Part shown: piece after piece, positions 1,496 through 33,716 of the stretch | How positions within the stretch are numbered: the first letter of the stretch is position 1 | Layout of the letters: each line of letters begins with the position of its first letter | Assembly: GCA_001687465.1 (NCBI GenBank) | Contig: LVLI01000953.1 | Location: 1 to 43,566 of the forward strand | Length of the DNA stretch: 43,566 bases | Reading direction: 5' to 3' | Source: Halocafeteria seosinensis | Taxonomy: Eukaryota | The notes under the pieces: generated by a model | Databases searched by the model: none | Told to the model about the DNA's origin: nothing | Seen by the model: the letters and a program-made list of their open reading frames with translations, nothing else | Made by a program: the position numbers and the translations under genes

Positions 1496-2626
1496 TGATC
1501 ATCGTCTGATGTAGCATTGACAGGTCACCGCTTGCGAACGCGCAGCCCAGAACGGATCCGGAAATACTATTGGATGGTTATTCCATACTGTCGCTCTAGT
1601 GCTACACCAGCGCTGAATGTGTATCCGCCACTGCTGTAGATGTGCACCTGATTGCGTCTAACCCTACCAGTGTGCTTGATTGAGAGGTACACAAACAGAA
1701 ACTCGGCCACCTCCGAATTCGCTGTGGGCCTCCGAAAAAACGAGTTGATGTCATCTTGTTAAACTGCTTCGTTTTCTATGTGAGTCCTGACTCCTAAGTC
1801 ACACCTTACTTGGAAACAGTTACAGTTAAGGCTGCAGTGGCATGCAAACACATCACGAGTGGTGAGTCGCAGCGCCATCAGCAGCATGAATCATGATTGC
1901 AGCTCTTCCGTATATTGGAAGTTCGAAGCTGATAAACCCAGAGGTACACGACCTGCAGAATATGCAGTACTGCTAGAATGTTGGTGTTCATTGGCTGTCG
2001 GAGATAGGATGACGTACCAACCATGGGTAGGTTTCCCAGCAGCTGCTATGGGCGAGGATCGTGCAGAACAGACAGCTTCCTGCTCTTAGTTACTTCGAAT
2101 TCGACAGTATTGCAACACTGACGTACTGCACCATTGTTTACGTGTGCGTAAAACTCACTTTGCACGTTTACTAGTTACATAAATCCCTCATCAATGATTG
2201 TCAACAGGCAAAGTCCCAGGGAATACGTTTCTCCAACTCCGTTGTTGAAGCCGACCGCTAACAAGCGTTAGTTGCTGGCACCCAACTGCCGTCCATAATT
2301 CCTGACTCGAAGAAGGTTGCAGTCCCCAGAGGGAGCAGATGATTTCCTAACAGGAATATCGACACATCGTTCGTTGTTACTGCGCAGTTAAGCAACTGAG
2401 TGTCTACCAGATAGGTTTTCTCGCGTTCTTGCTCGGTTACGTGTTCTCCGGTCTGAGGGGGTAGATTCCAGGAAGTATGGCAATATCTGCGTAAAGCTGT
2501 GGACAATTTATTCGTCTGAATTAACTAGGATATCTATTTACAGTTCCCTCATTCCCAAACTCTCCAGTAGCGTGTATTCGAATCGCTGAGTCACTGCTAA
2601 CGGGCACTGCTGACGCGCAGGCGAAA

Positions 2627-5600
2627 ATGGACGGTCCAGGACCAGAAAGACGCACGAAACCTTCAATGCTTACAAAGTTCAAGCATCATCGACAACGATC
2701 TTCAAGGAAATTTGCATTTAGGCTCTCGGTTCGCGTCTTGGTTGCGTGGGTTATATATCTCACGTTGACACTAGTTCCTTTGGTTCAAGACGAGTTGACT
2801 CAACCTCTACTCCCGTACTTGTATGCGACCAAAGCGGTTCTCACCAGTATCATGTTGACATTTCCGATCTTCACCAGGCTTCGATACTTCGAGAAAACGT
2901 ATTCAAATTATGTATCAGCAGCGACAGGGGCATTCATCGTGGTTCATTTTTCGGAAGGGGTAATTGTCGACATACTTGTGCGCCAGCACGGTTTCTACGG
3001 TGCCGAAGCAAACAGCGCCGCTGTAGTAATTGCTTCCCGGGTGCTAGGGCCGCATCAGTTACTCTTCCTGGTCTCGGTGCTGGCCAGCAGTCGCATAATG
3101 GTTATCGACACTGCAAACTACCTGCGTCTCTTGCTGATTGCTCCGAGTATTTGTACCCTGATTGTACTATTCCAAGCATTGGCAGTTGGAGGCGTGTCGT
3201 ACATAGGTCTGGGAACTGCAGATTACCTTCGATCTGTAATAGTAGTCATTGCGTCAATCTTCGTCAACTACTATATTGCATTGCTCGAGGAGCATGGACA
3301 GTGGCAATTGTGGGTTCAACGCAAACGAGTGCAACTCGGATGCATCCAGGCCGAGGCTCTGTTGAAACTTACAATGCCCCGAGAAACAGCTCACGAGCAA
3401 CTGCGAGGTGCACCTATCCCAAAAACCTACGACAATGCAACTGTTGGTTTTATATACTTCTCGGGCTACTCTTCGTTGATGAAGTCCTTGCAGGGTACGG
3501 TATTATCTTGCGAAGGAACGTGCACTGCTCACTTTATTTCATGGTTTGTCATTGCAGAGGAAAAGAGATTGGATTTGGTTCAGTTTTTAGATTTTCTCAT
3601 TGGCAAACTGGACCAACTGGTTGTAGAATTCCCGGAGGTGTATAAAATCGAAAGCATAGGCAATTGCTACATGGTGTCGTCCGGGGCACCTTTTGTAAGT
3701 CGAGACTTGTTCGTCAGCGCGGCTTTCCATTGTGGGAGCACCATATGTGGTATCACGTTGCTTCGGGCAGATAACGGACAGGCCTGCGGAGAGAGCTCTA
3801 GATTTTCTATTGGAGGCAATACAATTGTACAATGTGCTAAGAGTTGACTACAATCCGGAACCTTGGAGGGAATTTATCGAACAGCTAACGCTGCAATGCG
3901 GTGTACATTCTGGGAGAGTCACTGCGGGAGTCATAGGAAAGACCTGCCGATTCTACAGGTATCTAGCGGCATGGTTTGACTGCGATAGTTATTTACAATT
4001 ACACCATGAATTATTTTGCAGGCTGTTTGGCGACACCGTGAACGTTGCGTCTCGAATAGCTAGTAAATGCTCGAACAATAGGGTTCTGGCCAGTGAAAAT
4101 TTCATAAGCAGCTTAGGTTTAAAGAGCGCTCCTGAGTCGGATAGACGGTTTTCCAGAACAGAAACAGGTGCCCAATTTACCGTCTCAGGATATGGACTTG
4201 CCGATTTGAAGGGCAAAGGTATGACGTACTTGTACTATTTACAGGATGAAGATGCCACTCACGGAAAAAATGGTATCACCCACGATCCTGAGCAACTTGC
4301 AAATTCTGCTTCACGCGTGAAACGTAAGTGAACTATTACATGACATGAGAAAAGATTGGTCAAAGTATTGGCAAGTTCCAAGCGCAGCCATGACCACCAG
4401 TTTCAGCAAGGGAATGGCGACTATGACTAGTGCTACGACCCTTAGTGAAAATAGGGATAGCAAGAGGTCCATTCGAAGGACACAGTATATCATAGCGGAG
4501 ACGTCTCAACTATTGGGGTATTCGTTGGATCAATCTTTAACATCATATGGGAGATTGCCAGAGCCTGAGTTTCTTCATGAAGAATCCTTTTTTATTAAGG
4601 AACTGGAGACCCTAATACTCAGTCGGTTTGTTAATAGCCGACATAGTGCTTCCCGTATTTCTGATTCCCGTCACGATTCTACAATGTTGGCGGACTCAGA
4701 AAAGCTCTGCATTGAAGTAGGACATGAGATGAAGCAAACGTCAGGCAATAGTGTCGATCGCCCCTCGACATCCTCAAGCAGTTCGGAAACCATCAATCAG
4801 AACTACGAATTAGGCGAAAGAGAAGAGCACCTGCATCCTCCAGTGCGGAACGCCTGGATCATCGATCAAACATTCTTGTCCACTGCTCCTCGGAAAGCAA
4901 ACGACTCTTACTGCCATTGCTTACAGAATTGCAAATATTTCGGGTTATTGCGAGCTGGATTTCTCGTACCGGAAATGGAGAGCGAATACGAGAACTCGAT
5001 CCGCGGCCTCAACAGTGATTTATTGCAGCGGCTTGGAGGATTTGGATCCCTGTTTCTTCTATACACGTCTGGCATATATTTCAATTCCCTAGAGCATGTC
5101 ACGGTGTCCTCTATAATCATTTCCGGGTTGGTTCTAGTTATTGTCTTTCTTCGCAGTTATTCCCTGATTGCATTGTCCACGGTGCGGACGCAGGAAGATT
5201 CCAAAAATACCGCACCGCAACGACCCTTCAGCGAAGGGCTACGTCTTCTAGTGGGAAGAGCTAATTCCTCTGATGAGACTGGCGATCATCAGTTTGAACG
5301 AACCAAGCGACGACTAAGATTCAAAGCATATGCTTTCATAGTACTGTGGGCATGGTTGGTGATCATAACTCTGAGTGCGATGGACCACATAGCATGGTCT
5401 CGCGTACAGAACGCTCGACCGACTTCTGAATTATGTCTCGAGACTTTCTTGTATCCAGTGTTTCTCCTACCAGCGTTTCATGTCTTCAGGCTCGGTCTTC
5501 AAAAGCAGCTACTCATCCAGATCGGAGGGATGTTTGGTGTCATACCTATCCTCTTTCTGGCTTCAGAATCATTGCCCTGCAGTGGCTACATAATTGCGCT

Positions 5601-6363
5601 GGGTTTTCTGTTTGTGAGCAACGTTGTTGTAAACGGTATAATGGATGCGGCAGACGGAGAATTGAGACTTCGTCGCAGTGTCGTTCTTAATCGGGCCTTC
5701 GAAGAGTGCAACAACGATGCAAACGGAATGATTAGTGGCTTATTCCCACCGTCAGTCGCCCGAAGCCTCCGAAACGGAAAATCAATTCCTTTGAGGTTTG
5801 TGCCTAATAATGTTGCGATTCTCTGGGCGGACTTAGTAGGTTTTACTGCATTGGCCTCCAATATGGATTCTTTTGTTTCCATGGAACTATTGAACGACCT
5901 CTACAGTCGGTTTGACGTGCTGCTCGAATACGAATCGTTATGGAAGATGGATACCATCGGCGATGCATACGTGGTCGTGGGAAGTGGAGAAGAACAACAC
6001 GAAGCTTCGCTAGTTTCCTACCTTTTCCAAACAGCTCAAGGCATGATACGGGCCATTGAAGACTTTAAAAGTGATACTGGCTATGATGTCGGCGTTCGTA
6101 TAGGAATTGGGGCGGGACCAGCGGTATGGGGCGTCCTAGGCACACTAAGGCCGCGATTCCACGTGTTTGGGGAGGCCGTTCTGGAGGCTGAGGAAATGGA
6201 GGGTACAGCACGTACAAATGAAATCCGTGTGTCCCAAAATGCAGCCAACATTTACTGGCAGCATCAATTCCAATTTCGTCAATCAAGTGGTTATTTAGCC
6301 TTAGCTCCAGGGAAGCGTGTTAATGGGAGTGAGGAATCCAGCACTTGTTCAGGTGCTTCGTAA
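2627..6363 (+). CDS. Membrane class III nucleotidyl cyclase (TM cluster-cyclase-TM cluster-cyclase), probable guanylyl cyclase; 5 exons, 1156 aa (paralog A, intact)
   Basis: GT-AG introns 3495-3557, 3695-3770, 3959-4021 and 4324-4387 join the ORFs in frame. Motifs: YKIESIGNCYMV, CGVHSGRVTAGVIG, LFGDTVNVASR, ILWADLVGFT, WKMDTIGDAYVV, VRIGIGAGP. Hydrophobic helix clusters precede each cyclase domain. Confidence 0.92.
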
Positions 6364-8152
6364 AACAATAACCCAGAAGCACCAGAGTAGTTTGGTACAG
6401 CGAATACGGTAGGTGCAAGCCCCAGCTACTTGACGTTGCTTTCATTTGTGGAAATTCGAAAAGAAAGTAGTTAGTTTAGATAGATGATAGCGTGATACGT
6501 GAAGTCATCTTGTTGTGTCAGTGTCAGCCGGTTATTCATGTTAACCATTGATGTGGCCAAGTGGGACCAGACGTCGACCCCAGGGAATGAATTTTGAAGC
6601 CCTATTCCGGGGATAGGTCGGACTCCTAGGGTGCGTGGCACCAGGGCGATGCCGTCCAATGGGATGCCAGGGGTGGGACAGGGACAGCTTTTGTACAGTT
6701 GGCATATCAGATATATTAGTGCTACTGTCTTACATGTACCAATATAAGATACTAAAGACTATGTGCGTAACCTCAATATTGATATTTGGCGTGCTCTACT
6801 GCCCCACAGCCCTGTAACAATCTAAACCAGACGGAACATTGGTTACTGCCATCGTGGAGAAAGCGAGGATAGCTGGAGAAGTGTCGTAGAACTTGCGAAC
6901 CAGTTGCTTAAGGAGATTCACATGGATAACATTGAAACTTCGGCTTTTCTGAGATTTGTCGATGCTCCTTCGATCATCGGTGAATCACCGTAAATGCGTA
7001 AGAAACTGTAATACAATCGGAGTCGTTGGGAGGAGTTGTAAGTGGCAAGTCTATGGCCGTTGCATAACGTCTATTACGGCTATTTCTATGCCATCTTGCT
7101 GGCGGTGGAGTATTGAGGCGCAGCGATTGGCTCCCCTCCTAAAAGCGCATGGGAATTCCCTTGAGTTCCAGTGCTCGGTACACAAGGGAAGATGCCTGGC
7201 TGCAGATACCGGTAGGTTCAGAAAGCTCGTACATATATGTATAAACCCGAAATAGACATGATAGTGCGAAAAGAAATTTCTCATCACTATCTGTCCCAAA
7301 CTGTAATTGGGAGTGGGACAGCTTTTGTGGTACTCATCCTGGGATTGGGACGCCCCTACCCGGCGGTTGGAGTCAACTTGGGGACTACCTGTCCTGTGAA
7401 GTCGCAATCAAGGAGATTCCCTTGTTCTCCGCCCCCCAACTGTTGGATGGATTCCACAACTGTGGATTTCCTCTGAGTACTGAGCCCAGGGATTGAAAAT
7501 ACTCCAATCATTTGGTCATATACCTGAAGCCGTATTTGGGCTCATGCGTTTGGTTTTAGTTTGGCTTGCGGATTAGACTGACCGACTGCTAAGTACAGTA
7601 CTGTACGCATAAACCAACCCGTGGTAAGTAGAAGGTACTACCGGTATAGACATAGGTAGATATGTGGAAAATACTTTCGAACAATGTCTCGTCCCATGGT
7701 TACGAGAGTATGCTACTTGTAGACTGTGGTAGCTCCCTTTAACTGCTGCCGCCGGTAGTATGGGCGTAGAACATGCTTCCCCTTTTGCCGCTTGAACATC
7801 AGGAGGTTGTATGGTTCTACAGCAAAAAGAAGCCGTCATATTTACAGTTTATCAAGTCAATGGAATTGTTATATGGATACACTGTTGCATTTTTGATGCA
7901 CTGTAGCCGGCTGGGTTAGAAAGGTACGTAACCTAGCATTACCGGCTGCGAGTCAATGGACGGACGCTTTGGTTGTTTTGAATAGTTGTTCAATTATGTG
8001 ACACCAGCTATTCAGGGAGTTGGGAATCCTTGGGATGGTATTTCGCTTTTGCTTCGCCCGACTTCGTATGAGGTACCTCTGCGCCTCCCAGTATCATCCG
8101 TATTACGGTGCGCGCAGCGCCATGCAGATCCAGTCTGAAAACAGCTTCAACG

Positions 8153-11100
8153 ATGGACACAGAGAACCGTACACGTGGATCACAGTCCCAGCTTACTATG
8201 CTGGAGAACTTCAAGGAATACCGGTGCCGAGTCTTGAGAAACTTTATGTTTAGGCTCTCACTTCGTTTCATAGTTGCATGGATGGTGTATCTTGCGCTCG
8301 CACTAGTTCCAGTGATGATAGATAAGAACACGGCACCCCTCCTGCCTTACTTGTATGCCACCAAATCAGTACTGACGATTCTTGTGCTGACGGTGGCGGT
8401 TGTCACGGGAGTTCGATACTTCGAGAAAGCTCATTCAGCACTGTTAGCAACCATATTTGGAGTTATGATGATTGGCCATTTTTCGGAAGGAGTTATCGTT
8501 GACATTATCGTTCGGCAACAAAATCTCTACGGTGCCGAAGCTGATACCGCCGGCATAGTAGTTGCTTCGCAGAGCAAACTATGATTACCAGCAAAGACCA
8601 TAGGAGTATTGAAGTGGTGGTGCTTAGCCGCATGCGTTCCATCATAGCGGTATCTCGAGAACTGCAAATTTTATCCCAATTTGCAAACTTGTTTCCTCTT
8701 ATGCTTGTTTCCGCAGTAGCAGCAGCGTCTCCGCTGACTACATTCAGCGCATAGCTTCGAAGAAATACCAGTGGCAAAATCCCCACAGAAAGTATCACGC
8801 TGGAGATTGTCGTCCGCTCCGTAGAATGAAAATATGACGCGCACGTGTACAGCAAAAACAAGGTACCGAAAGCTCCCACCCTCTTCAGCAAGTCACTATT
8901 TAGACCGCTGAGAGAATGTTGATACTCCATCTCCATCTCTTCGTCGCGAAACCACGCGTTCAACGGTCCAACACATCTCTGAACTACCAAAGAACCGCCC
9001 TGATGAGCCAGAAATGTTTGATCTACGATTTCAGAGTAGTCTGGAGGAATAGTGTCTGTCTCGAACTCCGAAATTGAGGAAACATTTGAGCCCGCCAAAT
9101 AAGGATGATCCATTGAAGTAGTGTTCTGATTTGACTGTTGCTCCGCAGGTACATGTTGCCAACCTCTTTCAGAACGTGGTAGCGAACAAGCAGGGCGTCT
9201 CCCTGCTGTAGTCGTGGTAACAAAACGGTTGAGAATGAGCATCTCCAGGTCTTTGACAAAGAACGAGGTCTCTTGCACGAAAGAAGGCTCAGTAAGGCTT
9301 TGGTATGATGACAAGGCTTGCTCCAAAGGGTATTGTAGGAACTGGGTTGTCTCTCCTATTATGCGCTGGGCCCTTTGAATAGACTTCTTGCTGTCTCTGC
9401 TTTCGCTAACGCGTGTAGCACTCGTCATACTAGCAATCCCTGAGCTGAAACTGGTGTCTGCTGTTTAGCCATTTTTCCTTCATGTTATTGTAAGCAGTTG
9501 CAAATGATGAGCCTAGACTTACGTGTCATGCGCGAGGAAGCATGATCTGCAAATTTCTCAGATTTGGAGGTATGGGCAACAGGCTCGTACAAACAATATA
9601 AGTGCCTTTGACCTTTTCCTTTCAGGGTGACATCTCCGTAACTTGAGACGGCAACTTCTGTACCTTCTGTTGTTGTAAACCATGATTCATCTGAGGTAAC
9701 GTTTTGAGACAAGCCGATGCTTCTGCAGAAACTCTCACTGCCAAGTATTGTGTTGCTTGGAGACTTGCCTGCGATTCTGGATGCGACATTCACAGTATCA
9801 CCAAACAACCTGCAGAAATATACAAATTGGTACGGAATGGATTTACTACGAGGGAGACAACTGGCCCATAACGGGACTCATTACCTGTAGAATCGGCATC
9901 TTGTTCCTATCACTCCTGTTGTAACTTCTCCGGAATGCAAACCACACTGAAGTGTTAATTGCCCAAGAAACTCTTTCTCGCGTTCCGACGAGCAGTAAAC
10001 TTGTAGTTCAGAGTACAGCCGGAGCACCTCCAAGAAGAACTCCAGAGCTCTTTCCGCATGGCAATCCGATACCTGTAATTCCGGACGTAGCTACCACTAT
10101 TAGGATGTAGTAGAGGAAACAAAGCTCGACATACAAAGGGTGCACCTGAGGATACCATATAGCAATTCCCGATGCTTTCGACCTTAAAAACTTCCGGATA
10201 CTCCACAATAAGCTGGTCAAGCTGGCCAATAAGAAAATCCAGAAACTGAACAAGCTCCATTCGCTCTTCCCCTGCACAGGAAATAGCACTACTAGGCGCG
10301 GTAATCCCCACAAATACCGTATTTTATACAAACGAGTATTCACCTTGAGTTGTCTTCATCAAAGAAGAATAGCCACACAAATAAATAAAGCCAACGGTTG
10401 CTTCGCAGTACGTCTTCCGGGTGAGTGTGCCCCGGAGCTGATCATGTGCTGTTTCACGGGGCATTACCAGTTTCAACAACGCCTCTGCCTGGATGCATCC
10501 TAATTGTAATCGTTTTCGTTGAACCCACAGTTTCCATTCACCCTCCGCTTCCAGCAGGGAAATGTTGTAGTTCACAAAGATAGAAGTAGCGACTATAATC
10601 ACTGACCGAAGGTAGTCTGCAATCCCCAAACCAACATAAGACACACCGCCCCCCACAGCAACTCCCTGGAGAAGTACGAGAAGTCCGCAGACGCTGGGAG
10701 CTATCAGCAAAAGACGTAGATACTGTTTGACATCTCTAACCAGTAACCGGCTGCTTGCCACGACTGAAACTAAGAATAGCAGCTGATGCGGTCCCAATAC
10801 ACGCAATGGACCACATCTCCTGGTCTCATGAGCACAGATCTCGTCCTGCGTCGGAACTATGTCTCGAAACTTTCGTATATCCCGTGGTACTACTCTCCGT
10901 GTTTCATGTCTTTAGGATTGGGCTTCGACGACAGTTACTCGTCCAAATTGGAGGAATGATCAGTGTTGTACCTGTTCTCTTTCTGGCTCCGGAATCGCTA
11001 CCCTGTAGTGGGTACATAACAGCACTGGGATTTATGTTCGTGAGCAATGCTGTAATGAACGGTATAATGGATGCGGCAGATGGTGAATTGAGGCTACGGC

Positions 11101-11762
11101 GCAGTGTAGTGCTTAACCGAGCGTTCGAAGAATGCAAAGACGATGCAGACGGAATGTTACGTCGTTTGTTCCCGCCTTCCGTCGCTCGAAGTCTTCAAAA
11201 CGGAGAACCCATTCCCTTAACGTTTGCACCTAATGATGTCGCCGTCCTTTGGGCGGACTTGGTAGGGTTCACGGCATTGTCCTCTAGTCTTGATTCTTTG
11301 AGCTCTATGGAGTTACTGAGTGACCTTTACAGCCGGTTTGACGAGTTGCTTCAAGATGATTCGTTGTGGAAGATGGATACAATTGGCGACGCGTATGTGG
11401 CTGTAGGAAGTGGTGAAGAACGACATACGGCAGTATTACTTTTACATCTTTTCCAAACCGCTCAGGGCATAATCAGGGCTGTTGAGGAATTTAAGGCAAG
11501 CACTGGTTACGATATCGGTATTCGTATAGGAATTAGTGCTGGTCCAGCCATATGCGGTATAGTGGGCACGCTTAGGCCTCGATTCCACGTCTTTGGAGAA
11601 GCCGTTCTGGAGGCTGAACAAATGGAAAGTACCGCCCGGACTAATGAAATTCATGTTTCGCAGAAAGCAGCCAATATATACCGGCAACATCAATTTCATT
11701 TCTGTGAGTCAGAGGGTCATCTGACATTGTCAATGGATGTACATGATAACAACGAACACTAA
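8153..11762 (+). CDS. Paralog B of the membrane cyclase (1112 aa once restored), interrupted as assembled by an internal inversion of 8571-10802
   Basis: 8153-8570 (+) matches the N-terminus of paralog A, 10802-8571 (-) matches its middle, and 10803-11762 (+) matches its C-terminus. Restored junctions read VAS|RVLGPHQ and IVCS|AMDHI, matching IASRVLGPHQ and ITLSAMDHI in paralog A. Confidence 0.88.
8571..10802 (-). other. Inverted internal segment of cyclase paralog B (end of TM cluster 1, first cyclase domain, linker, start of TM cluster 2) with 4 intact introns
   Basis: Minus-strand exons are collinear with paralog A. Introns 10343-10272, 10134-10073, 9884-9810 and 9522-9461 are all GT-AG at the same codon positions as in paralog A. 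The segment is flanked by GC at 8569-8570 and 10803-10804. Confidence 0.92.
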
Positions 11763-12068
11763 GTGGCACGCCGAGTTCGCAAGAGGAGTTGAACTATCCG
11801 CTACTGAGAACGTCCTGGGCGATGTTTGGGGAACAAATCAACGCGTACGGAGGGGATCGTTGTTGACCGTGAAATTACAGAGTATCCAGGTTTACCGAAA
11901 GTGAAAAGCAATGAAAAATGCACACTGCAGGGGTAGCCAACTCTAGTATTCATTTTAAGCGTTACTTACGACAAAGTAACCTGACTGAGCCTTTGTACAC
12001 GACCTACAAACTTGAACACATTAATAGGCACATCTGGTAGACGCCACAAGCATACCGTTTTCTCTGGG

Positions 12069-13922
12069 CTAATTGCCATCGGACTCATCACTTCCCGAGT
12101 CCACTTCTACTTCCTGCTTCTCCGGAGCTGAGTCTTCGGTATTCTGTAACAACTCATCCAGTGCTTCATGGGCGTTCTGCGCTACCTCGTCGGTTGCTCC
12201 AAGTGGTGGATCTCCTCCAACGTCGGTAAAAAACAAGGGAGTGGAACCCAAGGTATCATCCTTCTCATTGATTGAGGATACTTTGCGTGGTTTAGCGGAC
12301 CGACTGGCGGTATGTTGACTCCAGATAGACCAAAGAAGCCGCACATCTTCCACGTCAGGAAGCGGGCCCGTGTTGTCTTCCGCTTCCTGCAGGACAAGTC
12401 GTGCGGTTATGTCTGTACAAACTGTTTTCCTGAACAAGTGTTCTGATATAGACGCGCGTTTCACATTCCCAAAGTGGTATCTGAACACGTGTCGTGCAAG
12501 CTGAGTCATTCGGTCAAGCGCTGCTTGTTCAGTATCAGCGAGTGAGGCAAACGTTTTGAAAGAATAAATCCATGCCAGCAATTCGCTCGGAAGAGGGCAC
12601 AGCTGCATGAATTCCTTTACTTGCGATATAATATGATCAATATCTGATATTAGATGTAAGGCTTGATCCATGGAGTCGTGTTTCTCTGTCTCCGATTCCT
12701 GTACCACGTATCTAGAGTGCCTTAGTTTCTCGATAAATCCAGCAGCAGTAACCAGTAACGAGAAGTAAAGTTCCGAATGTAAAATATAGAGCCCACTCGA
12801 TTGAGCTGCAGTAAAATGAGACTGGATAGATGCTTTGACTAAGCACTGGAAGAGCCTCCGCATATATTCGATTGTGAAGGCTTCTCCCACCAGAATCACA
12901 CTCTGAGAAAATGCCGTCCCGAATACTTGTCTATCCACCTCTGACATTCGACCTGCAATTGCGCAACAGGATTTCGTTGACTGAAACGCATAATCTGTCG
13001 CTGGACTCCCATGACGTCCGTAATAGAACGAGTGGACAGCAGTAACTATCTGGTCAAACTCAAATCGGGTCTTCCGAAGAGCCTGTATCCACTCTCCTGA
13101 CTGGAGCTTTTCATTTTTATGCAAGAAAGACCGGGCTTGTAATAATCCTGTTATACACAGGCATTGCTCCAGTGATGTACTGGAATCCTCTAAGCGATTC
13201 GTCGCTTCTTCGAAAGGCTTCTTGAAGAACGATGACACCTGAGGCAAAACATCGCGGCTGTATTTACGCCGAAGTCCAAACGAATTAATCACATCCCTTA
13301 TCGCTTTCACCAGATTGGGCAGTTCCATCTCGTCAGTAGTATCTATGGCGGAGGTAGTAAGGAGCATAACGCCACATTCAGCTAAGGCGTTCATGTAGGT
13401 CATTGCCGTCTCAGGATCCCAGTACAGTCGCTTATCGGAGAGCGCCATCCGACTAAGCCGAACCACTCGTTCCGCCCACATTGCACCACTCTTCTTCCCC
13501 GAGGAGTGCTCAGTATCATTATGCAGCGCAATTTGCACCATTGTGGCAGCGTTGGCCCACGGACGCAGCGCCCATTCGCACCGCAGTTCATTCGTTTCCC
13601 GACTGTCGCCATACAGGTCGTTCTCCGTGACTCTGCAGCCATCGTAAACTTGACAGGACGGGCTGGAATCATCCCATAATTGAGAAATCCAGCTCTGAAC
13701 GTCAGCAATACCCTCCTGGACAGCCTTTGCCGGCGCCGTTTTCTCTGTTTCAAAGCCATTTCCGGCCTCTCTGTCCACCGCACGAGCAGGCGACTTGGAT
13801 GAAGCTCCTTTGCGTCGTTTGGAAGGAGTGGATCTCGAGCTAGAAACATCTGTATCAGCATATAAACCCTGTTTGGGAACTTGCGAACCTCGCTTATGCG
13901 ACGTCTGCCGAGTCCCTCTCAT
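12069..13922 (-). CDS. Hypothetical protein, 617 aa: basic N-terminus (possible NLS), helical core, acidic C-terminal tail
   Basis: Long uninterrupted ORF with protein-like composition; PSKRRK near the N-terminus. No family recognised. Confidence 0.75.
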   Translation of the reverse strand: MRGTRQTSHKRGSQVPKQGLYADTDVSSSRSTPSKRRKGASSKSPARAVDREAGNGFETEKTAPAKAVQEGIADVQSWISQLWDDSSPSCQVYDGCRVTENDLYGDSRETNELRCEWALRPWANAATMVQIALHNDTEHSSGKKSGAMWAERVVRLSRMALSDKRLYWDPETAMTYMNALAECGVMLLTTSAIDTTDEMELPNLVKAIRDVINSFGLRRKYSRDVLPQVSSFFKKPFEEATNRLEDSSTSLEQCLCITGLLQARSFLHKNEKLQSGEWIQALRKTRFEFDQIVTAVHSFYYGRHGSPATDYAFQSTKSCCAIAGRMSEVDRQVFGTAFSQSVILVGEAFTIEYMRRLFQCLVKASIQSHFTAAQSSGLYILHSELYFSLLVTAAGFIEKLRHSRYVVQESETEKHDSMDQALHLISDIDHIISQVKEFMQLCPLPSELLAWIYSFKTFASLADTEQAALDRMTQLARHVFRYHFGNVKRASISEHLFRKTVCTDITARLVLQEAEDNTGPLPDVEDVRLLWSIWSQHTASRSAKPRKVSSINEKDDTLGSTPLFFTDVGGDPPLGATDEVAQNAHEALDELLQNTEDSAPEKQEVEVDSGSDESDGN

Positions 13923-14911
13923 TCTGTTTCCGTCACTTTACAGTTCCCGCCACGCGTTCCATACACTCAAACACACCAACAAGGATACAAAGAACCATCC
14001 AGCGTGCAAACAGGTGGGATATACACGTGTGTATACAGACAAAACGGGACAGGACTCCACATCCAGGAGTCAGTTTCAACTTCAACTTCAACTTCAGGGC
14101 CTGCCTGCAGAGGAATTCAAACGTTCAAACGCCGAACGGAGGGAAGCAGAAGACAGGAGGAGACTACCGTAAAGTTTTTTCGTCCTGATCAGGGGTTTAT
14201 TTGCAATTCCGATTGGGAAAACTGCGGGTAGCTGGTTTTGTTTCGACCGGAACTCATGTGGCACATGCTTCCTTAGCTTCCATTGACAGCGGAGACAGAA
14301 AATGGCTGAACTTGCTTTTTATCATATGTTGGAATTGAGAGTTCTCAGCAATGCATGTCCTGGTACAACTGTTGTAGCCCTTCTACTTAACACTCTTGCA
14401 ACGGTACACTGACTGTTGGGTGCAAGTTCCACCGGATGGCTACCACAATATGAATATGCAACGCTATTGTTTTGCACCTCAGTTTTGTCTTTCACCTTAT
14501 TTCCTCAGTTCAATATATTCAGAGTTCTATGCCTAAGTGAAACTCGCGTTGTCATGCAGATAGCAGGAAGCAAGGTCTGGGGTTTGGACTCATTGCAGCC
14601 GTAGTCTTGGGAATCCAAACTCCAACTTGCGATCCTATCCGCAACGGAACTGTGAAATTCAGCCTGCAGCACGTTCATACGCACGTAGAGAGATACACCA
14701 AGCCAGGATTGACTGTGTCGAGGTACGGTATGTGAATAGAGAATAGAGTTAGCTTGAAGTCTTATTGATGGAATATACGGTATAGAGTACCACCCAAGGA
14801 AGCGCACCATTGGTCGCAAGGAGGAACTTAACGGCTGCGCTTTTACACCTTCTACTGGTATTGGGCTGATTGACGTGCATAGAGGCAATCGGAACAAACA
14901 GACAACGCACG

Positions 14912-21268: not shown

Positions 21269-24200
21269 TGCCTCTTCAACGGGTTGAAGCCGTTTAGTCC
21301 ACGATAGACCACTCGGTATAAGGCATTTGTCAAGTCTGGTGCTATTAAGTGTACAAACACAGAACGTCTCGTCGAAATCGTTTGGTGACGCATACTTAAC
21401 ACGCGTGAATACAGTGTAGTCTGAAATCTGCCAATTCCGTGGAAAAAGAACAATTGCTCAGGCTTTCTTGACCTTTCGCAAACTGCGAATGCAGAGCCAC
21501 GCTCTCCTGTACCCTGGCTTAATTGCGAACCAAGCAAGGCATCCATTCATCGTAAATTCGTGGTTTCCGAGAGCCGAAGAACTAGGTAAGTGTTGCGTTT
21601 AGCTTCATTCTCTGTCCCCTGAGTGGCCCCCCAATTGAAGTCTCTGTTGCTCCTCGGTGGCAACTCCGTTCACGCCGAACACCCGACTGAGGGCGTGTCA
21701 AACCTCGGTGCGGGGCCTACTCCCCAACTTCTCGGGAGAGCTTCCCTGCAAGGGCGGTCCCTTTGGGAAAATGACCCACACGATGAGCATTGTGGAAACA
21801 CCTGGTGAGATGATAAGACTTCAACATACACTATTCAGACTTACACTAATCATTTTCGGGGCAAGAAAGCCGGAAGAGCACAGATAGTTAATTAGATTGT
21901 ATGCGATGAATTGTAGGTGGTTGCAGATGGCGTACCCATCAAGAATGAAGCTGTCAAGCGCGGTCGGCCTCCTAACAATATCTGCGTACTTGGTGAAGAC
22001 TGTCGCAGCCGGGTGCAGCTGGTACCATTCCTATTGGCACCCTTGTAATCCCGGCGAGTATATTCACTCGGGATGCTATTGGTGTAACGAAGAATGTTGT
22101 GACTGCCCCGTAAGTGGGACAACACTAGGGAACTCAAATTGTCTTACCTTCTAATCATCAGGCGGTTTCGTTTGTATCTACAGTCGGGGCAGTTTACCGA
22201 TAGCAAAAACGAAAATTCTTGTAAGAACTGCCCTAGAGGCGAGTACGCGTCAGGTGTTAGCAATGATCACTGTGATAACTGTCCGAGTGGTAAACATCAA
22301 TCATCATGGGGTCAATCCCACTGTGACTGGTGCCCCCACGGACAGATCTCTGGATGGGGAGACATCTGGTGCTCGAACTGTCCTGCTGGGAAGTACGAAA
22401 CTAACAGCCACAAGAGCTGCAGCTGGTGTCCAGGTGCGTATGCATTATTATCCCGACTATTTAGGTATTCTTGCGAAGGAACGTCTGCTCGCAGATGGGG
22501 AAACCAGCAATGATGGATGGAGTGGCTGCAGCGACTGCCCTGCTGGCAAATATGAACACGGCAAGAAGTCTTGCCGAAACTGCGCAGCAGGAAAATTCAG
22601 CAACCAGGGACGCAATTCTTGTAGACAATGCTCTGCGGGTCAGTTTGCAAGTGGAAGTGGAAACAGTCACTGTGATCAGTGCCCTTCCGGACGTTATCAA
22701 GACAGTTCAGGGGAAGACCACTGCGACGCTGCACCCCGAGGTCGGTATGCAAACAGTCGCACCAGCACAATGCCTTGCCCACGTGGAAGATATGGATCGT
22801 CTACTGGGTTAGCTAGCGCAAGCGACTGTAAAAGGTGTGCTGCCGGGAGGTACTCTAGTCACGAGGGCAATACCGCGCCCGGGGACTGCCGACTTTGTCC
22901 TGCCCAGAGACACGGAAATCCTGGAGACACCTCCTCGGATTGCGCCGGCGAGTGCCCAGCTGGTCGATATTGCCCTAAAGGCACGGCAGTGGGAGAAGAA
23001 CCCCCGTGTGGTGCCGTGGACCAGTTTTGCCCCAAAGGTAGTGAGCATCCTTTTTCCGTTTCGGAAGGTCATTACAGCGTCCCTCTAAGTGCCCATGAGA
23101 AGCTGAGGGAAAACCAAGTAGAATGCGAGCCTGGATATTACTGCACTGGAGGAGAAAGAATGAAATGTAAGGAGAGGTACTACGGCTCCGAATCAGGGCT
23201 GACGTCTCCGGAGTGTACGGGCCTTTGCGATAACGGCTACTTTTGCCCCGAGGGCAGCACATCAGCCAGAGAAGAGCCATGCTCGGATGATAACCCAGAA
23301 AAATATTGTGTGGAAGGATTCCGAAACCACTGCCCGTCAGATAGTTATACCACCCCGGAATCCCCGGACTACTCGCGGCGGAGCGGTTGCGAAGAGTGTC
23401 CTGTTGACTACGCATGCCACGGTGGCCTTAGGGTGAAGAAGCTGGCTTGGGAAGATCTCCACTGTGGGACCGACCCGAGGTTCGTGTTTGCACCCGAAAT
23501 TTCGAAAAAGAAAGAAGATGATGTAGACATAGGCAAGCCGCTGCTTCTTGAAGCAAGGCAAGAGTATCACTCCATCACCTACGAAATCGTATCGGTTCAA
23601 GAAAGTGGACGAAGGGGCGATGGACGGTTGTGCGAAGACGACATTACTTCTCAGTCACCATTTCGTATAGACAGCTACCTCGATGAAGCAACAATCTACC
23701 AGCCGAAGGATGACTCGGAGGCTATTGTCCAAACTAAAGGACAACTCAAAATTGGTAAAGGAGAGACCCTGGAGTTCGCTTCATGTGATAAGTATATGAT
23801 TGAAATCAAAGGAGTTTTTGATCAGGATGAGGAAGTCCGCTTAGAAGAGACTTGCAGTGTTTCTGTTGGCGTTGAATTTGTTAACTCTGCTCCAAGGCGG
23901 GTGGAGGGAGGGGATAGCAAGTTGCAAGTCACTGCCCGCCGGGGACAGCCGTTCAATGAGAGTGTCGGTGAGCCCTTACTGCAGTATTTTGAAGACCCTG
24001 ATGGAGATGAAATTGCATTTCGTATCGAGTCAGAAAGTGGCTGGCGCAGGCGGAACCTTGAAGGCGAAGATCATTTGTTTTTCATCGACAGTTGCTCCGG
24101 CCAAATCCGAGTCGGGGAACCTCTCGCATTGCAGCAGATGGATGAATTGGCTACTGTTACGTTGACCATAGTAGTGAGCGACAACCGTCCTCAAGATACA

Positions 24201-27200
24201 GGAGAGGCCACGGATGAAGTGTATGTGACTGTGCAAGAGCGAAATCGACCTCCGCGAATACAAGAACCTCTCCCGGTATTGCATGTGGTAGAAGGGGCTA
24301 GTAAGGGAACTCCAGTCGGAACGAAAGACGACCCCGATCGCAGCGAGTTTAAGACTATCGTGCAGGATGAGTTTGTGACAGATCCTGACTCTGACGAAAC
24401 TACTGTTTCAAAAGGCAGTTGTTCCCTCGATACCGCCTGCGAAGTCTTCACTGTGTCCAAAGATGGGAAGGTCACAGTAAAGGATCCCACGTATCTGGAT
24501 CACGACAAAGCAGGAACGCTTCCAAACTTCTTGCCCGTGGTTTATAGTGATGGTGTATCGGGGAGTACTTCAGCTGCCTTGGAGATATATGTGGAGGAGC
24601 TACGAGAAGCTCCTGTCATAACTACAACCGCCTTCGAAGTAAAGGAACAAACCACTGGGGTAATCGGTCAGCTGTCAGGCGAAGACAATCATGGGGACGA
24701 GTTCGAGTATTTCTTAGTAGATGCCATTAATAACCGTGGGGCTGATGAGTCTCGCATCTCCTTGAACAAGAATCAGATCGTTGTTGACAGTGGTGGGTTC
24801 AATACGGTGCGATGTACAAGCGCAGGCTGCAAAAATTGTAAACCGTACGACGAGTGGATAAAATTGACAGTGCAAGCGAAAGTGACGAACAATGATGATT
24901 CGATGCCAGGTCCTACTATGTCAGAAAAGACAGAAGTACAAATCGATGTTCAGTCGATTTCGAAGGCTCCGAGATTTATTGAACCATCTAGAAACCTAAC
25001 TATGCAGGAAGAAACTTCCAATGAAAAAATTGACCTATCCCCCTTATTTTGCGACATCGATGGAGGCTTAATCCTCTACGAAATAAGTCGTGTCGAGGGA
25101 CCGACAGGTCAAGCTCCATCTGCGACACAATTCTCCATAGATGAACGGTCAGGACTTCTTTCTCTCAATGAGCCCTTGGACTATGAGAATGCAAATAAGT
25201 ATATCTTCAGGATGAAGGCAATTAATGCGGGTGCACCGCATAAATTTGCGAACGTTTCATTCAACTTGTTCGTTGTTGATGTTCCTGAGCCTCCGAGGAT
25301 TATAACAAAGTCAGTAGAGATCAACGAAGGAAGTGACCATACGACGGGCACGCTTGCTCGGTTAGAAGTAAAGGACAGGGACATATATGCTGGAACTGAA
25401 CGTCCATATTCCTCTACCCCGGCTGCGTTTAAGTTTGAGCAGGTATCGCAACTTGACACGCTTCATGTCAATCAGAGTACTGGTGAACTCAGTGTTCATG
25501 CTGGCCATGTTATTGACTATGAACCTCTGTATCCGGATCCGGGTCTAGAGCTGCAGTTAAGAGTGAAAGACACGCGGAACAATGTATCGTCTGCGGTCAC
25601 TCGTGTGCTAATAGAGGTTCAAGACGTTACCGAGGCTCCCTTCTTTTCCCCACCGGAACAAGACTTTACTATGGATGTCGTTCGGCAGGGGGAAATCCTG
25701 GGGACCGTTGATGCTTCTGATTATGATATTGACGACTCTATTACGTATCGGCTTATAGACAGTCCCCCCTTCGTGCAGATAAAAGAGACTAGCGGACTCC
25801 TGCTACCGATTCCAGAACTAGGCAACAGCTCCAGTGGTGGTTCAATCGACTTTGGTGTTGAGGTAGGTGACACTTTGCAACTAACCGTGGAGATCCGTGA
25901 TACTTATAATCTAACGTCTGTTGGCACCCACACTATACGCGTGGTAGAAAATCAAGCTCCCCCGCGTTGGATAGGGTCTTTCTATGAGCACTTCAGTGAA
26001 AACCTGGTATATCAACTCAATGTACCGGAACGTCATAACGGAGTCGTCAATAATTTCAGACTAAGATGCGAAGATCCGAATGGAGGGAACGTTCAGTTTA
26101 GTGTCCAAACGACGAGTCCTCGTGAATTTTCCTCCTTACTCCGCCTCTTGCCTAGCACTGGTCAACTGGAAGTGCCTGATCCGGATGCACTCGATCTGTA
26201 CAAATTGGAGCATCACCATGGCATTCTGAATGTGATTTGCTCCGATAGCACGAACAAACAGTCTCCAGTCGGCAAACTTAATGTGTCAATAAGCGATACA
26301 CCACAAGCACCTAACTTTCGTGATGCCCCCTTGGACCCTGTACTGGCGATTCAGGAGGACGCCAACGAGGGTATACCAGTGGCCACAGTCAAGGCATTTG
26401 ATCCTGACGAACACAGCGCATACCACCTGGCGTTCAACATGGCCTTTGAAGACGGTCCAAGCGACCAACCTGCTCCTTTGACTGCTACCGACCCTGTGTT
26501 TGAAACCGACGGGCATGTTGCGTTCGCTAACCTGACACTTGCAGTGTCACTCAATTACAACAGGCAACATTTCTATCGTTTGAATGTCTCAGTTAATGAC
26601 CAGACGGGATTGATTGATAGTATGATTTATGAACTGCACGTCGAGTTCGTGAATACTGCACCCTCATTCGACCAAGACGTGTATGTAGTAAGTGTTAGGG
26701 AAGACGTGGAGGAGAGTGTCCCTATTAAGTCAGCCTTCACATTTTCGGACCGAACGCCTTTTGATCGCCAAGTCGAGTACAGTTATGAGGTTTTGTGGAG
26801 TGACGAGCCAGGACTGTTTACGTTCGTCGGTCACGACTTGTCACTAGCCCCAGGACGAAGCATGAATTATGAGGTGCAACCCATTCATTACGCACGGGTT
26901 CAAATTATTGACGAGGGAGGCTTAACCGACGAAGCCAACATCACCGTGCATCTCACCGATGTCAATGACATAAATGTAGAGGAATTCCGGAGTCCTTCTT
27001 TAGCGACACGTGGTGGCAACAAAGTACACTTCATTGGAAGGGAAATGGGGCCAATATGGCGTGAAGCTCAAGTCCGAGCTGAGCTTCAAAGTAGCGATGG
27101 ACTCTTCTATGCAAATGCGGATTGTCAAAGACGGCAAAATGGCTCCCAATGGATTAACACGGAAGTCGAATGCCAAGCTCCGGAGGGCATCGGTAAACGC

Positions 27201-27297
27201 TTGCGTTGGACGCTTCATATCGATGCGCATACTTACTCTACGCTTAAGCTCAGTTCATCGTACGCGAAGCCGCAGTTAAACGAATTATCTTCATGGC
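21269..27297 (+). repeat. Copy 1 of a recent tandem segmental duplication (partner 37402 to window end)
   Basis: Direct alignment with offsets of about 16.12 kb (5' part) and 16,270/16,269 (3' part). Coding parts are nearly identical; the upstream non-coding part carries small indels. Confidence 0.95.
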
Positions 27298-30200
27298 CTC
27301 AAGAGGCGAGTACGACAGGTGGTCAACTATTCAAGATCACTGGTGAAAATCTTGGCCCTCAAATACTCACCGATATTAATGGGAACAGAAGGAATACCTC
27401 CGTCTCTGTCCGATATCGCAATAGCGCAGGCGACGAACTCGAAAGTGGTCAGTGCCAAATTACATCGGCACATAGCGAGGTTTCTTGTTTTACGAGTGAA
27501 GGAACGGGTGGCTCCCTTGAGTTTAAACTGCGAGTTGGACCCGAATCCAGCAATTGGCTCCAGGAGACCCAGTGGTTGGTTCCCCTCAATGATACACAAT
27601 ATGCTTCACCAGAAATCCAAGCTATGCGGACCTTGATGAGCAAGTTCCCAACGACTGGCGTCAATGAAGCGATGCAATTGATTGGACAAAATTTCGGCCC
27701 TAGACAAACGAAGATAGATGCTATCATGTCGAATGACAAGTATACGTTGCGTGTTGCATGCCCTACCGGGAAGCATAATCACACAGTGGCAACATGCGAT
27801 ATTCCAGCGGGAGTGGGTGAAGGGTACGTCTTTACCGTTACTGTCTCTGGTCTGGAATCGGAATCAAGTGGTGAAGTCTACACGTTTTCCTACGACCCTC
27901 CAAGTATCAAAGCCATAACAGATATTCAAGGTGGCCCACCTGTCAACCTCGACACGAAAGGAGACGAGCTTGTTGTAATAACGGGGTCCAACTTTGGACC
28001 CTTGTGGAGCTACAACCTCCCCATTAAGACACTCTATGGCGCAGAATTCGAGTATCTTGCAGAAGATTGCACGCTTGCTTCTGAACATACTGTGATTGAA
28101 TGTTCCACTGTCGAAGGTGTCGGCAATAATCATAAATGGAAAGTAATTGTTGGCGACCAAGCTTCCAATATCATGAAAGATGTCAGTAACTATCATCCAC
28201 CCATTGTTGGGACGTATCGCCGTGGGTTGCTTGAGCCAATAGGAGAGGGTACTGCTAATTTCAATACGGAGGGCGAGGATGAAGTAATAATTGGCGGCAG
28301 TTTCTTTGGGCCTTCAGAGACTGTGCCAGACAAGGTTGTCTACGGACAGGGGAATGAGACGTTTCATGCACAGGACTGCAAAGTCGTTGATCATGACAAC
28401 CTGCGTTGTTTTACAGCCCCAGGAGCTGGTGATGACCATTTTTGGACTGTCATTATAGCCGGCCAGCAATCCGAAGTATCTACTACAGGGTACGGTCCTC
28501 CGGAAATTTTAGATTTCCAGGGAGTCGATGGGTCGGACCCACAAGCCTTGAATACACTTGGCGGAGATACCATCGATATCGTGGGCACCAACTTTGGGCC
28601 ATCGGCAAATTCGAGTAACTTCTTGGAGAAGGTTACTTTCGGTCCCCGTGGCAATGAATTTGAAGCCCAGCCATGTGAAGTGGTTTCTCATCACAGAATT
28701 CGTTGCACGGTGGGCCAAGGCAGCGGTAGTCAACACCGTTGGATCGTGAAAGTGGCTGGGCAACGCAGCAGAACGAGTCCAAAGTTTACAAATTTCGCCA
28801 GTCCTACAATTGAGGTAATCTCTCCGGGGAACGGTCCAACCGGATATAACGTAACAGGGGGTTCCATGCCGCGGATTGAGTTGCGCGGATATCATTTCGG
28901 AGTGAATCTTCTTCAAGATGTGGATGTTTCTGTGCTTTTTGATGCCACAGGGCGATTTCCGCGCCTGTACGAATCCGAGGACGCAAACATTACGTCTATA
29001 CTCGGTGAGTTCTTCGACGTACAGCAGTTACATCCATTGGACTTTGTACAGAAAGTCGGCTCTAAGAATCTTGATGGAGATGCTCTTAACCTGTGGCTAG
29101 ATACGATCCACGAGATTCCTGTTGATTCCTCCATGATCGAATGGTTGTCCAAAAATTCCGAGGCTCAGAAGATTGCGTTCACTCTTCCCGAAGGATTTGG
29201 GGCTCACCGGCCGGTAATGGTCAAAGTTGGGGGGAAAATATCGCATCCGGCGTGGTTTGGCTATGACCCACCTCGGATAAGAAACGTAGCCCCGAGTGTC
29301 CCTACGGGAGGCTCGTTTGAGATTGTTATCGACGGAGAGAACTTCTGTGGTGGACGCTCTTGCAAGAGCGTTGAATGTTGCGGAACAGTGTATGTTGATG
29401 GAGACGTTGTGGATGTGGCCGATCACCGATATTCCCATGACCAGATTAGAGCAACAATACCAAATGAAAACACGGAACAACATGTTCTTCAGGTCCACGT
29501 AACGGGTCAGACCTCAGCCTCTGCTGAACGAACCTTTGGTGCCATAGCTCCAAGCATCGCAGGTCAAGAGAAGTTCAAGGCATGGCCCGAGTTCAATACT
29601 ACAGGTGGTGAAGAATTGACCTTATTCAACATCCGCGGCGTGACCGGTGGAACTCAGGCGCAGGATCTCTCAATTACAGTGGGAGAGAGGCCCTGTGACA
29701 TAAAGGGTGACCTAAGTTTGGTGCAGAGAGACAGTGGTATTTGGGAGGCCAATGTGACTTGTTCGACGCCCGAGAACGTTGGAAAAGATTTATCCGTCAA
29801 CGTGGAGATCTCCGGAGTGTCCTCACCCGATCAACAATTCTCGATTAGCTACGCTTCTCCCACTGTATGTTTGATACAATTGGCGCCCGACAATCTCGAG
29901 AATGTCGTCCACGTTAGTAAGGCTCCGGAGTGCGACTTAGTTTTCAATGGCCGTGAGGTATCAGCCACGGAAAACAAGTTGCCTACGGAGGGGGGTGAAC
30001 TATTGATAGAAGGGCGCAACTTCGGTTCGAGTTTTCTTGGTATGGAGGCCGTTTTGGACATCGCAGGAATTGGAACGATCAACATTACAGAGCACACGCA
30101 TCATAAGATTCGAGCGATCCTTCCCGAAGGTTCAGGAAAAGATTTAGTTGGAAGCTTCTTCGTTCGTGATGCGCGCAATACTGATATTTTCGAGATTAGT

Positions 30201-33200: not shown

Positions 33201-33716
33201 ACTACTACGGATGATGACGAAACCTACGATGCTCAAATAAATCCTCTGGCATTGACCCAACACATAACCTCCCCTAAAGAGACCGAGTCGCCGAGCGTAC
33301 AAAATGATGAAGCTGACCTAAGGAAGCGTTTGGAAGACGCAAGAGAGGAAATTCGTAGGTTGCGGAAGCAGGAAAATGTTGGAAACGTCAGAAACCAAAA
33401 CGAATCAGAACAGAAACGTGATTTTTTACAATATCGGCCGACTGGATGGAGTAATAGACGAATGTTTAATCCAATTACTGCTAACTCCGCTGAATCACCT
33501 CAGTCGTCCCGTAACGGCAAAGAATCATGGAAGACACGAGAAGAACCCTCACAGCTGAGTAGAGGAAGTTTTTCGTCGAAATCTCTCAAAGCTGCCTCCT
33601 TCCGTGCTCGCAGGGCTTCGTCCGGAAGAAGTCTAGACTCTGATGCAGCTCCGTCGTCTCTGCGAGCAAAAAGGGATACAGCTTCGGGTTCTATTGAAGA
33701 CGAAAAGTACAAGTAA
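21927..33716 (+). CDS. Giant cell-surface protein of nonagonal-cadherin type, about 3884 aa: signal peptide, Cys-rich repeats, cadherin repeats, IPT/TIG repeats, Cys-rich region, 9 TM, cytoplasmic tail
   Basis: Introns 22110-22183 and 22434-22494 attach a signal-peptide exon (alternative ATG at 21945, MKLSSAVGLLTISAYLVKTVAA). CxxCPxG repeats follow, then cadherin motifs (DPDGD, LDYE, DVPEPP, DVND; about 23450-26970), repeated ITGxNFG/YxxP IPT units (about 26980-31400) and nine hydrophobic helices (about 31740-33065). Confidence 0.9.

Follow-up and report, generated by a model that had tools for sequence, protein, structure and literature searches.

The stretch of DNA analysed here (the window) is 43,566 nucleotides from the bicosoecid Halocafeteria seosinensis (GenBank assembly GCA_001687465.1, contig LVLI01000953.1, positions 1 to 43,566). 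The window has a tandem pair of genes predicted to encode membrane nucleotide cyclases, referred to as paralogs A and B. Paralog A (2627-6363, + strand) is intact, whereas gene B contains a real 2.2-kb inversion. This inversion is most probably a heterozygous, one-off and balanced change that likely arose from end-joining of two DNA breaks, so that the two orientations would be two alleles of a diploid cell. The inversion itself, its balance, the presence of both forms in DNA-like and RNA-like data and the association of orientation with flanking letters are directly supported.

Geometry of the inversion

A self-BLAST of the window matches B to A on the + strand at both ends (A 2717-3036 with 8249-8568; A 5377-6275 with 10803-11701) and on the opposite strand in the middle (A 3047-3961 with 10794-9882; A 4395-4633 with 9456-9218). 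The inverted segment is 2,232 bp long (8571-10802, - strand) and carries codons 140-793 of B, which include membrane helices, the first cyclase domain, the linker and four introns. It separates the 5' coding part (8153-8570, + strand; codons 1-139 and the first base of codon 140, with the start codon assumed) from the 3' coding part (10803-11762, + strand; codons 794-1112), which contains the last membrane helices and the second cyclase domain. Out of 35 x 35 = 1,225 cut pairs scored against A, the best-ranked cuts were 8570/8571 with 10802/10803 and two GC-shifted equivalents. The left breakpoint (8569-8570) and the right breakpoint (10803-10804) both consist of a 2-bp self-complementary GC core within a coding exon, and in inverted orientation the two sites share exactly these 2 bp and nothing further.

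An earlier reading made from the letters alone (the sequence-only reading) had claimed that 8571-10802 is inverted relative to A and balanced at GC, that both breakpoints lie inside coding exons, and that re-inversion gives a collinear 1,112-aa frame with four introns. These claims hold. The self-BLAST and the cut-pair scan agree, no base is gained or lost, and the joins fall in codons 140 and 793/794. Re-inverted B without its four GT-AG introns encodes 1,112 aa with no internal stop and a single terminal stop, and is 61% identical to the 1,156 aa of A (677/1,103 aligned residues).

No inverted repeats were found at the breakpoints, and none of the 25 longest of the 222 inverted pairs in the window flanks the segment. 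The likeness of the breakpoint sites in inverted arrangements has a p above 0.1 at all four window sizes. There are 0 tandem repeats in the window. The inversion in gene B is the sole strand-switch joint among the 15/19 joints listed for 1500-13500.

Evidence from sequencing runs

The read evidence comes from four public runs (X1-X4) of two samples in one study, all in the form of assembled contigs. X1 keeps introns (contig 9779-10804, which stops exactly at the right breakpoint) and X2-X4 skip them; therefore, X1 was read as DNA and X2-X4 as RNA. Both collinear junctions are present in 4/4 runs, and the letters at their loose ends match the predicted joins without any insertion or deletion. 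The left junction of the window is spanned in 4/4 runs by a 108-nt contig (8506-8613, 65 + 43 letters) with 0 differences. In X1 the depth of this inverted junction is 76.6, whereas the contigs over the left and right collinear junctions have 59.5 and 71.9. At the right junction the residual of the X1 bin 10723-11123 corresponds to a 185-nt contig in the window form at about 68x, a value derived from depth, against 71.9 for the collinear form. The same residual arithmetic reproduces the left junction contig within 0.1% (8,280 vs 8,273), and nothing is left of the right-junction residual in 3/3 RNA-like runs. By contig depth the inverted share in B is 0.56 and 0.49. Both junction forms are at about half depth in the DNA-like run, as a heterozygous inversion allele needs.

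The sequence-only reading had suggested looking for both orientations over the junctions and for restored transcripts. In the contigs both forms occur at the left junction in 4/4 runs, and the RNA-like runs skip the four introns and join both breakpoints as predicted. It had also considered an assembly or amplification artefact. In favor of this, the collinear form is real, X1 is possibly the source of the window and the window is possibly a haplotype mosaic inside the segment. However, the inverted left junction appears with 0 differences and at roughly half depth in the DNA-like run and again in the three RNA-like runs of the other sample; therefore, the inversion is not an artefact. The 2-bp core also offers an assembler no repeat to flip on. 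This explanation is refuted at the left junction and is overall highly improbable.

Alleles, copies or a switch

The two orientations carry different flanking letters. Outside the left breakpoint, position 8536 has the window letter on the inverted junction contig and another, synonymous letter on the collinear contig in 4/4 runs. Outside the right breakpoint, the loose-end consensus of the collinear form differs at both 10818 and 10829 in 4/4 runs; the first difference results in Ser799Ala, with Ala as in paralog A, and the second is synonymous. In 4/4 runs the collinear contigs differ from the window at two positions of 8506-8570, of which 8536 is the one listed, and at one position of 8569-8613, which appears to lie at 8583 judging from the contig ends. 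Contigs break at 8535/8536 and 8583/8584, and the contig graph breaks at the marker sites, as happens when each letter leads to only one orientation. Orientation is completely linked to the flanking variants at contig resolution. Since the collinear form differs from the window both outside and inside the breakpoints, it belongs to the other haplotype and is not a flipped window molecule. This argues against a reversible switch and against programmed unscrambling, both of which would keep the letters of the window.

A reversible ON/OFF switch, in which an enzyme would make 2-nt staggered cuts at the GC of each site and rejoin the segment either way, would explain both orientations in DNA-like data, the restored spliced mRNA, the exact balance at a self-complementary dinucleotide and the imperfect likeness of the two sites. 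However, orientation is locked to the flanking letters in 4/4 runs, there are no inverted repeats (p above 0.1 for inverted arrangements) and a core of at least 2 bp occurs in 16% of random cut pairs (P = 0.16; 100,000 pairs). In addition, the Pfam scan, which covered 23 of the 67 window ORFs of 100 aa or more, found a recombinase domain in 0/23. Such a switch is therefore very unlikely.

In ciliate-like programmed unscrambling the window would be a germline-like precursor, the collinear form a somatic product and GC a 2-bp pointer. Bicosoecids are not known to have a separate germline nucleus. No eliminated sequence is found at the junctions, the supposed precursor is itself transcribed, and the product should keep the letters of the precursor, but it does not. 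Scrambled genes do provide 2-bp pointers in Euplotes and segment inversion (PMC9797194), but the forms of gene B differ in letters with no base lost, and the feature of a product made from its precursor fails. This is the least probable of the explanations considered. The headline of the sequence-only reading, a reversible switch or a scrambled gene, was thus not borne out: the restored form has different letters on both sides of the breakpoints in 4/4 runs, and inverted repeats are lacking. What stands is a fairly recent one-off mutation, in a form that this reading had not listed, namely heterozygous beside an intact allele.

X1 also contains two versions of paralog A (depth 86.9 of 149.7 at 4126; 102 of 168.6 at 4653), with a window version share of 0.40-0.42. 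Two near-1:1 versions occur throughout the 12 kb examined, A and spacers included, as is expected for a heterozygous diploid. H. seosinensis and Cafeteria burkhardae have been reported as diploid, and the genome of the former is apparently diploid (10.64898/2026.06.25.734631). The GC content of the window is 43-53% and that of the genome is 46.8% (10.64898/2026.06.25.734631).

Several points weigh against a heterozygous one-off inversion. The kind of each run is unrecorded, so the DNA-like and RNA-like types were read from intron skipping. The window-form right junction is absent among the pieces listed and is based on depth arithmetic. Contigs drop rare variants, and X1 is possibly the source sample of the window, in which case it is not independent. 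The inverted junction is deep in RNA, which is not required of a dead allele, although contig depth cannot give levels. In the collinear allele the breakpoints lie in an imperfect direct repeat of ~40 bp, which random end-joining does not predict. Finally, contigs cannot tell alleles from near-identical copies, and a mixed culture would result in the same linkage between orientation and letters.

The last two points correspond to two alternatives. The first is a recently duplicated block of at least 12 kb (A + B) in a haploid or homozygous genome, with one B copy broken by the inversion. The window does have another duplication, with 93-97% identity (21269-27297 vs 37402-43566). However, two near-1:1 versions extend across the whole 12 kb, with A and the spacers included, and diploidy has been reported for this species (10.64898/2026.06.25.734631); a duplicated block is therefore unlikely. 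The second is a stable two-strain culture in which one strain is fixed for the inverted and one for the intact allele. The word 'clonal' has 0 occurrences in the available passages (10.64898/2026.06.25.734631), which leaves room for it. On the other hand, the near-1:1 ratios lean both ways, with the window version having a share of 0.56 and 0.49 in B and of 0.40-0.42 in A, and both haplotypes are present in two samples, so two strains are slightly less probable still than a duplicated block.

A heterozygous inversion in a diploid cell remains the favored explanation. Two DNA breaks would have been end-joined once at the 2-bp GC core, flipping the 2.2-kb segment, and the inverted and intact versions would be two alleles of one diploid bicosoecid locus. 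The intact allele would give a spliced collinear mRNA for a predicted 1,112-aa membrane nucleotide cyclase. The transcript of the inverted allele would cross the left junction and reach a stop after 143 codons, and this allele is predicted to be cyclase-null. Such an allele would be tolerated since the cell keeps the homologue and several paralogs. Orientation seems to be inherited with the haplotype, with no flipping at frequencies visible in contigs. Searches of mostly open-access literature on bicosoecid ploidy, bicosoecid cyclases and eukaryotic intragenic inversions with antisense effects gave no report of the inversion. The words 'inversion' and 'cyclase' each have 0 occurrences in the available main text of the genome preprint (10.64898/2026.06.25.734631).

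Intact and inverted transcripts

In the RNA contigs of the intact version, such as those of 2,010 and 2,668 nt in X4, all four coding introns are removed and both breakpoints are bridged in the collinear order. These introns lie on the - strand at 10272-10343 (intron 1, 72 nt), 10073-10134 (intron 2, 62 nt), 9810-9884 (intron 3, 75 nt) and 9461-9522 (intron 4, 62 nt), and all of them are skipped in X2-X4. An acceptor 3 nt further for intron 4 gives 9458-9522, and X2-X4 show both skips; this tandem acceptor (9458-9461, - strand) results in two RNA-contig forms one codon apart. Upstream, B has a GT-AG intron in its 5' UTR (7624-8117, + strand), seen as the joint 7622 to 8117 (GT..AG at cut +1) in X2, X3 and X4. 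This intron has alternative acceptors at 7822, 8117 and 8127 (7624-8127), and a short upstream ORF begins before B at an out-of-frame ATG (8122).

The inverted version is also transcribed across the left junction. The inverted junction contig connects upstream to a contig spliced at the + strand 5' UTR intron, which suggests transcription of the + strand. Its depth in the RNA-like runs is 443, 106 and 494, compared to 38, 34 and 112 for the long collinear contigs. The truncated ORF of the inverted allele (8153-8584, + strand) encodes 143 aa with three predicted membrane helices and no cyclase domain. The RNA contigs have the window letters up to 8897 and 22 differences over 8898-9460, and excess depth suggests that the inverted transcript ends at about 8730-8970. 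The transcript would thus likely end 150-400 nt into the inverted segment, and its 3' tail probably occupies 8571-8900 (+ strand, end approximate), antisense to about codons 684-793 of the intact mRNA. There is a single AATGAA at 8825, but this is too weak evidence for a poly(A) signal.

Taken together, we infer a short inverted transcript that encodes a 143-aa three-helix stub without a cyclase domain and has a tail antisense to the intact mRNA. The antisense part would correspond to roughly 300 nt of the intact mRNA. It could have a dampening effect on that mRNA, but it is unlikely that this effect matters. The intact mRNA is clearly not silenced outright.

Beyond the 3' end of B, the RNA contigs are continuous into a convergent - strand ORF at 12069-13937 (window 10805-13427). 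This ORF encodes 622 aa with no Pfam match, and the continuity may reflect 3' ends overlapping with B or read-through.

Breakpoints and age

Since a core of at least 2 bp occurs in 16% of random cut pairs, the exact balance at GC fits ordinary end-joining. The imperfect direct repeat of ~40 bp at the breakpoints shares the motifs CATAGT, TTGCT, GGACC and CATC. Its local score has a p of 0.001-0.005 and its in-register global score a p of 0.04-0.2. The statistic was picked once the match had been seen, and at the corresponding sites of A the two sequences are less alike. Homologous recombination between direct repeats does not yield inversions. In the window the upstream halves of this repeat form an imperfect hairpin at the left junction (8554-8585, folding z -1.37) and the downstream halves form another at the right junction (10780-10826, folding z -1.44). 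Neither folds significantly, as 18 and 23 of 200 shuffles fold as well.

These sites leave a slim chance, about equal to that of the reversible switch, that a dedicated eukaryotic enzyme made the inversion at imperfect, like-oriented sites of ~40 bp and still flips it below contig detection. Such an enzyme would cut with a 2-nt stagger at the self-complementary GC and religate without loss, and a rare cell would switch between the cyclase and a 143-aa stub with an antisense mRNA.

Meiotic breaks are one possible source of the two cuts in a one-off inversion. In end-joining of double cuts at meiotic hotspots, the median microhomology is 1 bp and inverted re-insertions come with deletions (10.1101/2020.06.23.168138). 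These products resemble gene B in having two breaks about 2 kb apart, very short microhomology and an inverted re-insertion (10.1101/2020.06.23.168138). SPO11 leaves 2-nt 5' overhangs (PMC11922745), and a self-complementary overhang of this type would give a balanced inversion as seen here. The geometry fits a SPO11 origin; however, neither site fits the mouse-favoured GNATNC, and this candidate is kept as a lead only.

The sequence-only reading had taken the absence of decay to mean that the inversion is very recent, reversible or programmed. There are indeed zero stops and frameshifts, but this is a weak clock that bounds neutral divergence only below about 0.7-2%. The dN/dS of B versus A, a comparison that reading had proposed, is 0.13 overall and undefined in the linker, with a dS of 2.25. 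Since synonymous sites are near saturation, this ratio shows long-term constraint and cannot date the inversion. Compared with the A/B split (dS about 2) the inversion is young, but the data do not show it to be very recent. Collinear RNA has 2 differences from the window in the 1,006 exonic bases of 9523-10802, whereas contig depth roughly suggests some 9-15 heterozygous sites in this interval. Since the RNA differences are few despite this heterozygosity, the window may carry the letters of the intact allele in part of the segment, and may thus be a haplotype mosaic inside it.

The cyclase pair and its relatives

Intact B is predicted to be a 1,112-aa class IIIa two-domain membrane nucleotide cyclase. 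Paralog A is likewise a predicted two-domain class III membrane cyclase (1,156 aa) with introns at 3495-3557, 3695-3770, 3959-4021 and 4324-4387, of which introns 3 and 4 are skipped in RNA-like runs. PF00211 is matched in both halves of A and B above the cut-off, with one B exon piece below it. A Kyte-Doolittle scan found 10 hydrophobic segments each in A and B, compared to the canonical number of 12. The sequence-only reading had assigned the same catalytic motifs to both paralogs, and these are indeed shared by A, B and the EukProt protein P0029, whose C-terminal domains carry ADLVGFT and DTIGDAY and whose N-terminal domains carry GDTVNVASR. We take these motifs to supply two metal-binding aspartates in the C-terminal domain and an Asn/Arg pair in the N-terminal domain, and therefore a single composite active site is predicted. 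At the substrate positions there is a Glu at the first, which is typical of guanylyl cyclases, and an atypical Arg at the second, so that either GTP or ATP may be the substrate.

The best PDB match of the B 3' part is the first catalytic domain of adenylate cyclase 9 (AC9; E 2.4e-36). In mammalian AC9 the arrangement differs: here the metal-binding aspartates are in the C-terminal domain, which best matches the first catalytic domain of AC9. The pseudo-heterodimeric mammalian AC9/AC8 and the cyclase module of P4GC, a fusion of flippase and guanylate cyclase, have the same two membrane blocks, two PF00211 domains and a variable linker (PMC13466520). Unlike the alveolate/stramenopile P4GC, A and B have no flippase module (PMC13466520). 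The N-terminal P4-ATPase domain of P4GC was absent from A and B.

The closest relatives of A and B are EukProt GECG01 proteins, which probably also come from H. seosinensis, a Cafeteria roenbergensis protein and metagenomic proteins. A tree was built from 25 C-terminal domains, namely A, B and 23 of 56 stored matches chosen by rank plus outgroups. In this tree these relatives form one supported clade with A and B, in which B is sister to A + P0029. P0029 is listed as a complete 1,152-aa ORF and is 98% identical to A (1,129/1,152), with 23 residue differences and a 4-aa gap; therefore, it is most simply the other version of A. Between the two versions of A, 20 of the 23 substitutions and the 4-aa gap are in residues 433-683 (the linker region), which would make them unusually divergent alleles. 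No near-identical full-length B protein was found among 28 matches (7,995 candidates) or 32 matches (5,265 candidates) in length-limited searches. Exact look-up of two truncated ORFs, including the 143-aa stub, and the 3' remnant in the protein collection gave 0/3.

Other cyclases are also indicated. A 43-nt part of the second cyclase domain (11365-11407) is matched by another contig, which points to a further paralog; loose ends are found at 11365 in 4/4 runs and at 11407 are listed for X2-X4. Three more two-domain cyclases (P0002, P0004 and P0032) come from the same EukProt source as P0029. P0005, which is labelled Symbiodinium sp. KB8, has a cyclase domain identical to that of P0036 and nests with Cafeteria-type proteins, suggesting a contaminated record.

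Neighbouring features

The region between A and B (6950-7350) is a multi-copy repeat in which X1 shows increased depth, numerous loose ends and short skips, and is possibly a mobile-element remnant. A deeply covered, spliced - strand transcript at 1500-2501 has an intron near 1950-2016, no long ORF and several indels between versions. The window also has a 3,853-codon intronless ORF (22155-33716) with TIG, cadherin and ephrin-receptor-like domains. The 93-97% identical duplication mentioned above is a second copy (37402-43566, matching 21269-27297) of the 5' part of this ORF. About 180 codons close to its start (residues 151-329) are missing, its frame is shifted by 1 bp near 40205, and it continues past the window end. 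This copy may be a paralog, a pseudogene or a haplotype that was assembled in tandem. An exact 81-bp direct repeat is found at 35821-35901 and 35924-36004, with the copies 22 bp apart.

Related inversions and significance

The inversion in gene B works like a constitutional intragenic inversion allele. Alleles of this type, for example in DMD (PMC10690541, PMC9544221), likewise come from a one-off inversion with breakpoints inside a gene, and they yield a truncated product while an intact copy or the reference allele exists alongside. The present case differs from the DMD-type alleles in three ways: the gene is a compact protist one with coding exons interrupted at both breakpoints, the 2-bp core leaves the join exactly balanced, and the RNA data readily yield a contig of the chimeric transcript.

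Known reversible systems share some of these features. The Sclerotinia sclerotiorum MAT locus has a eukaryotic, kb-scale (3.6 kb) inversion that truncates a gene, with near-1:1 forms that are both transcribed (PMC3574095). That inversion is flanked by identical 250-bp inverted repeats, its orientations are otherwise identical, and it flips each meiosis (PMC3574095). In contrast, gene B has no inverted repeats, and its orientations are on different haplotypes. Bacterial intragenic invertons (PMC10028968) and the flip/flop mating-type inversion of Ogataea polymorpha (PMC5720833, PMC4238957) are also inversions that recode or truncate a gene or change its expression, with both orientations per sample. 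Invertons have flanking inverted repeats by definition and are reversible in an otherwise isogenic population (PMC10028968). Gene B shares with them the presence of both orientations in one sample (X1), but has neither the inverted repeats of the invertons nor the isogenic background in which the invertons and the Ogataea flip/flop are reversible.

If enzyme-driven flipping were true, a nuclear gene of a protist would be switched by an internal inversion that needs no inverted repeats, which would be a new kind of eukaryotic switch. Read as a heterozygous inversion, gene B offers a clean natural case in which a balanced inversion runs from one exon to another within a gene and segregates, in a protist that has been little studied, as a likely null allele. 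There is also a warning on method. The usual test for an inverton looks for both orientations and restored transcripts, but a heterozygous diploid produces these just as well, and the two can be told apart only by phasing to flanking variants.

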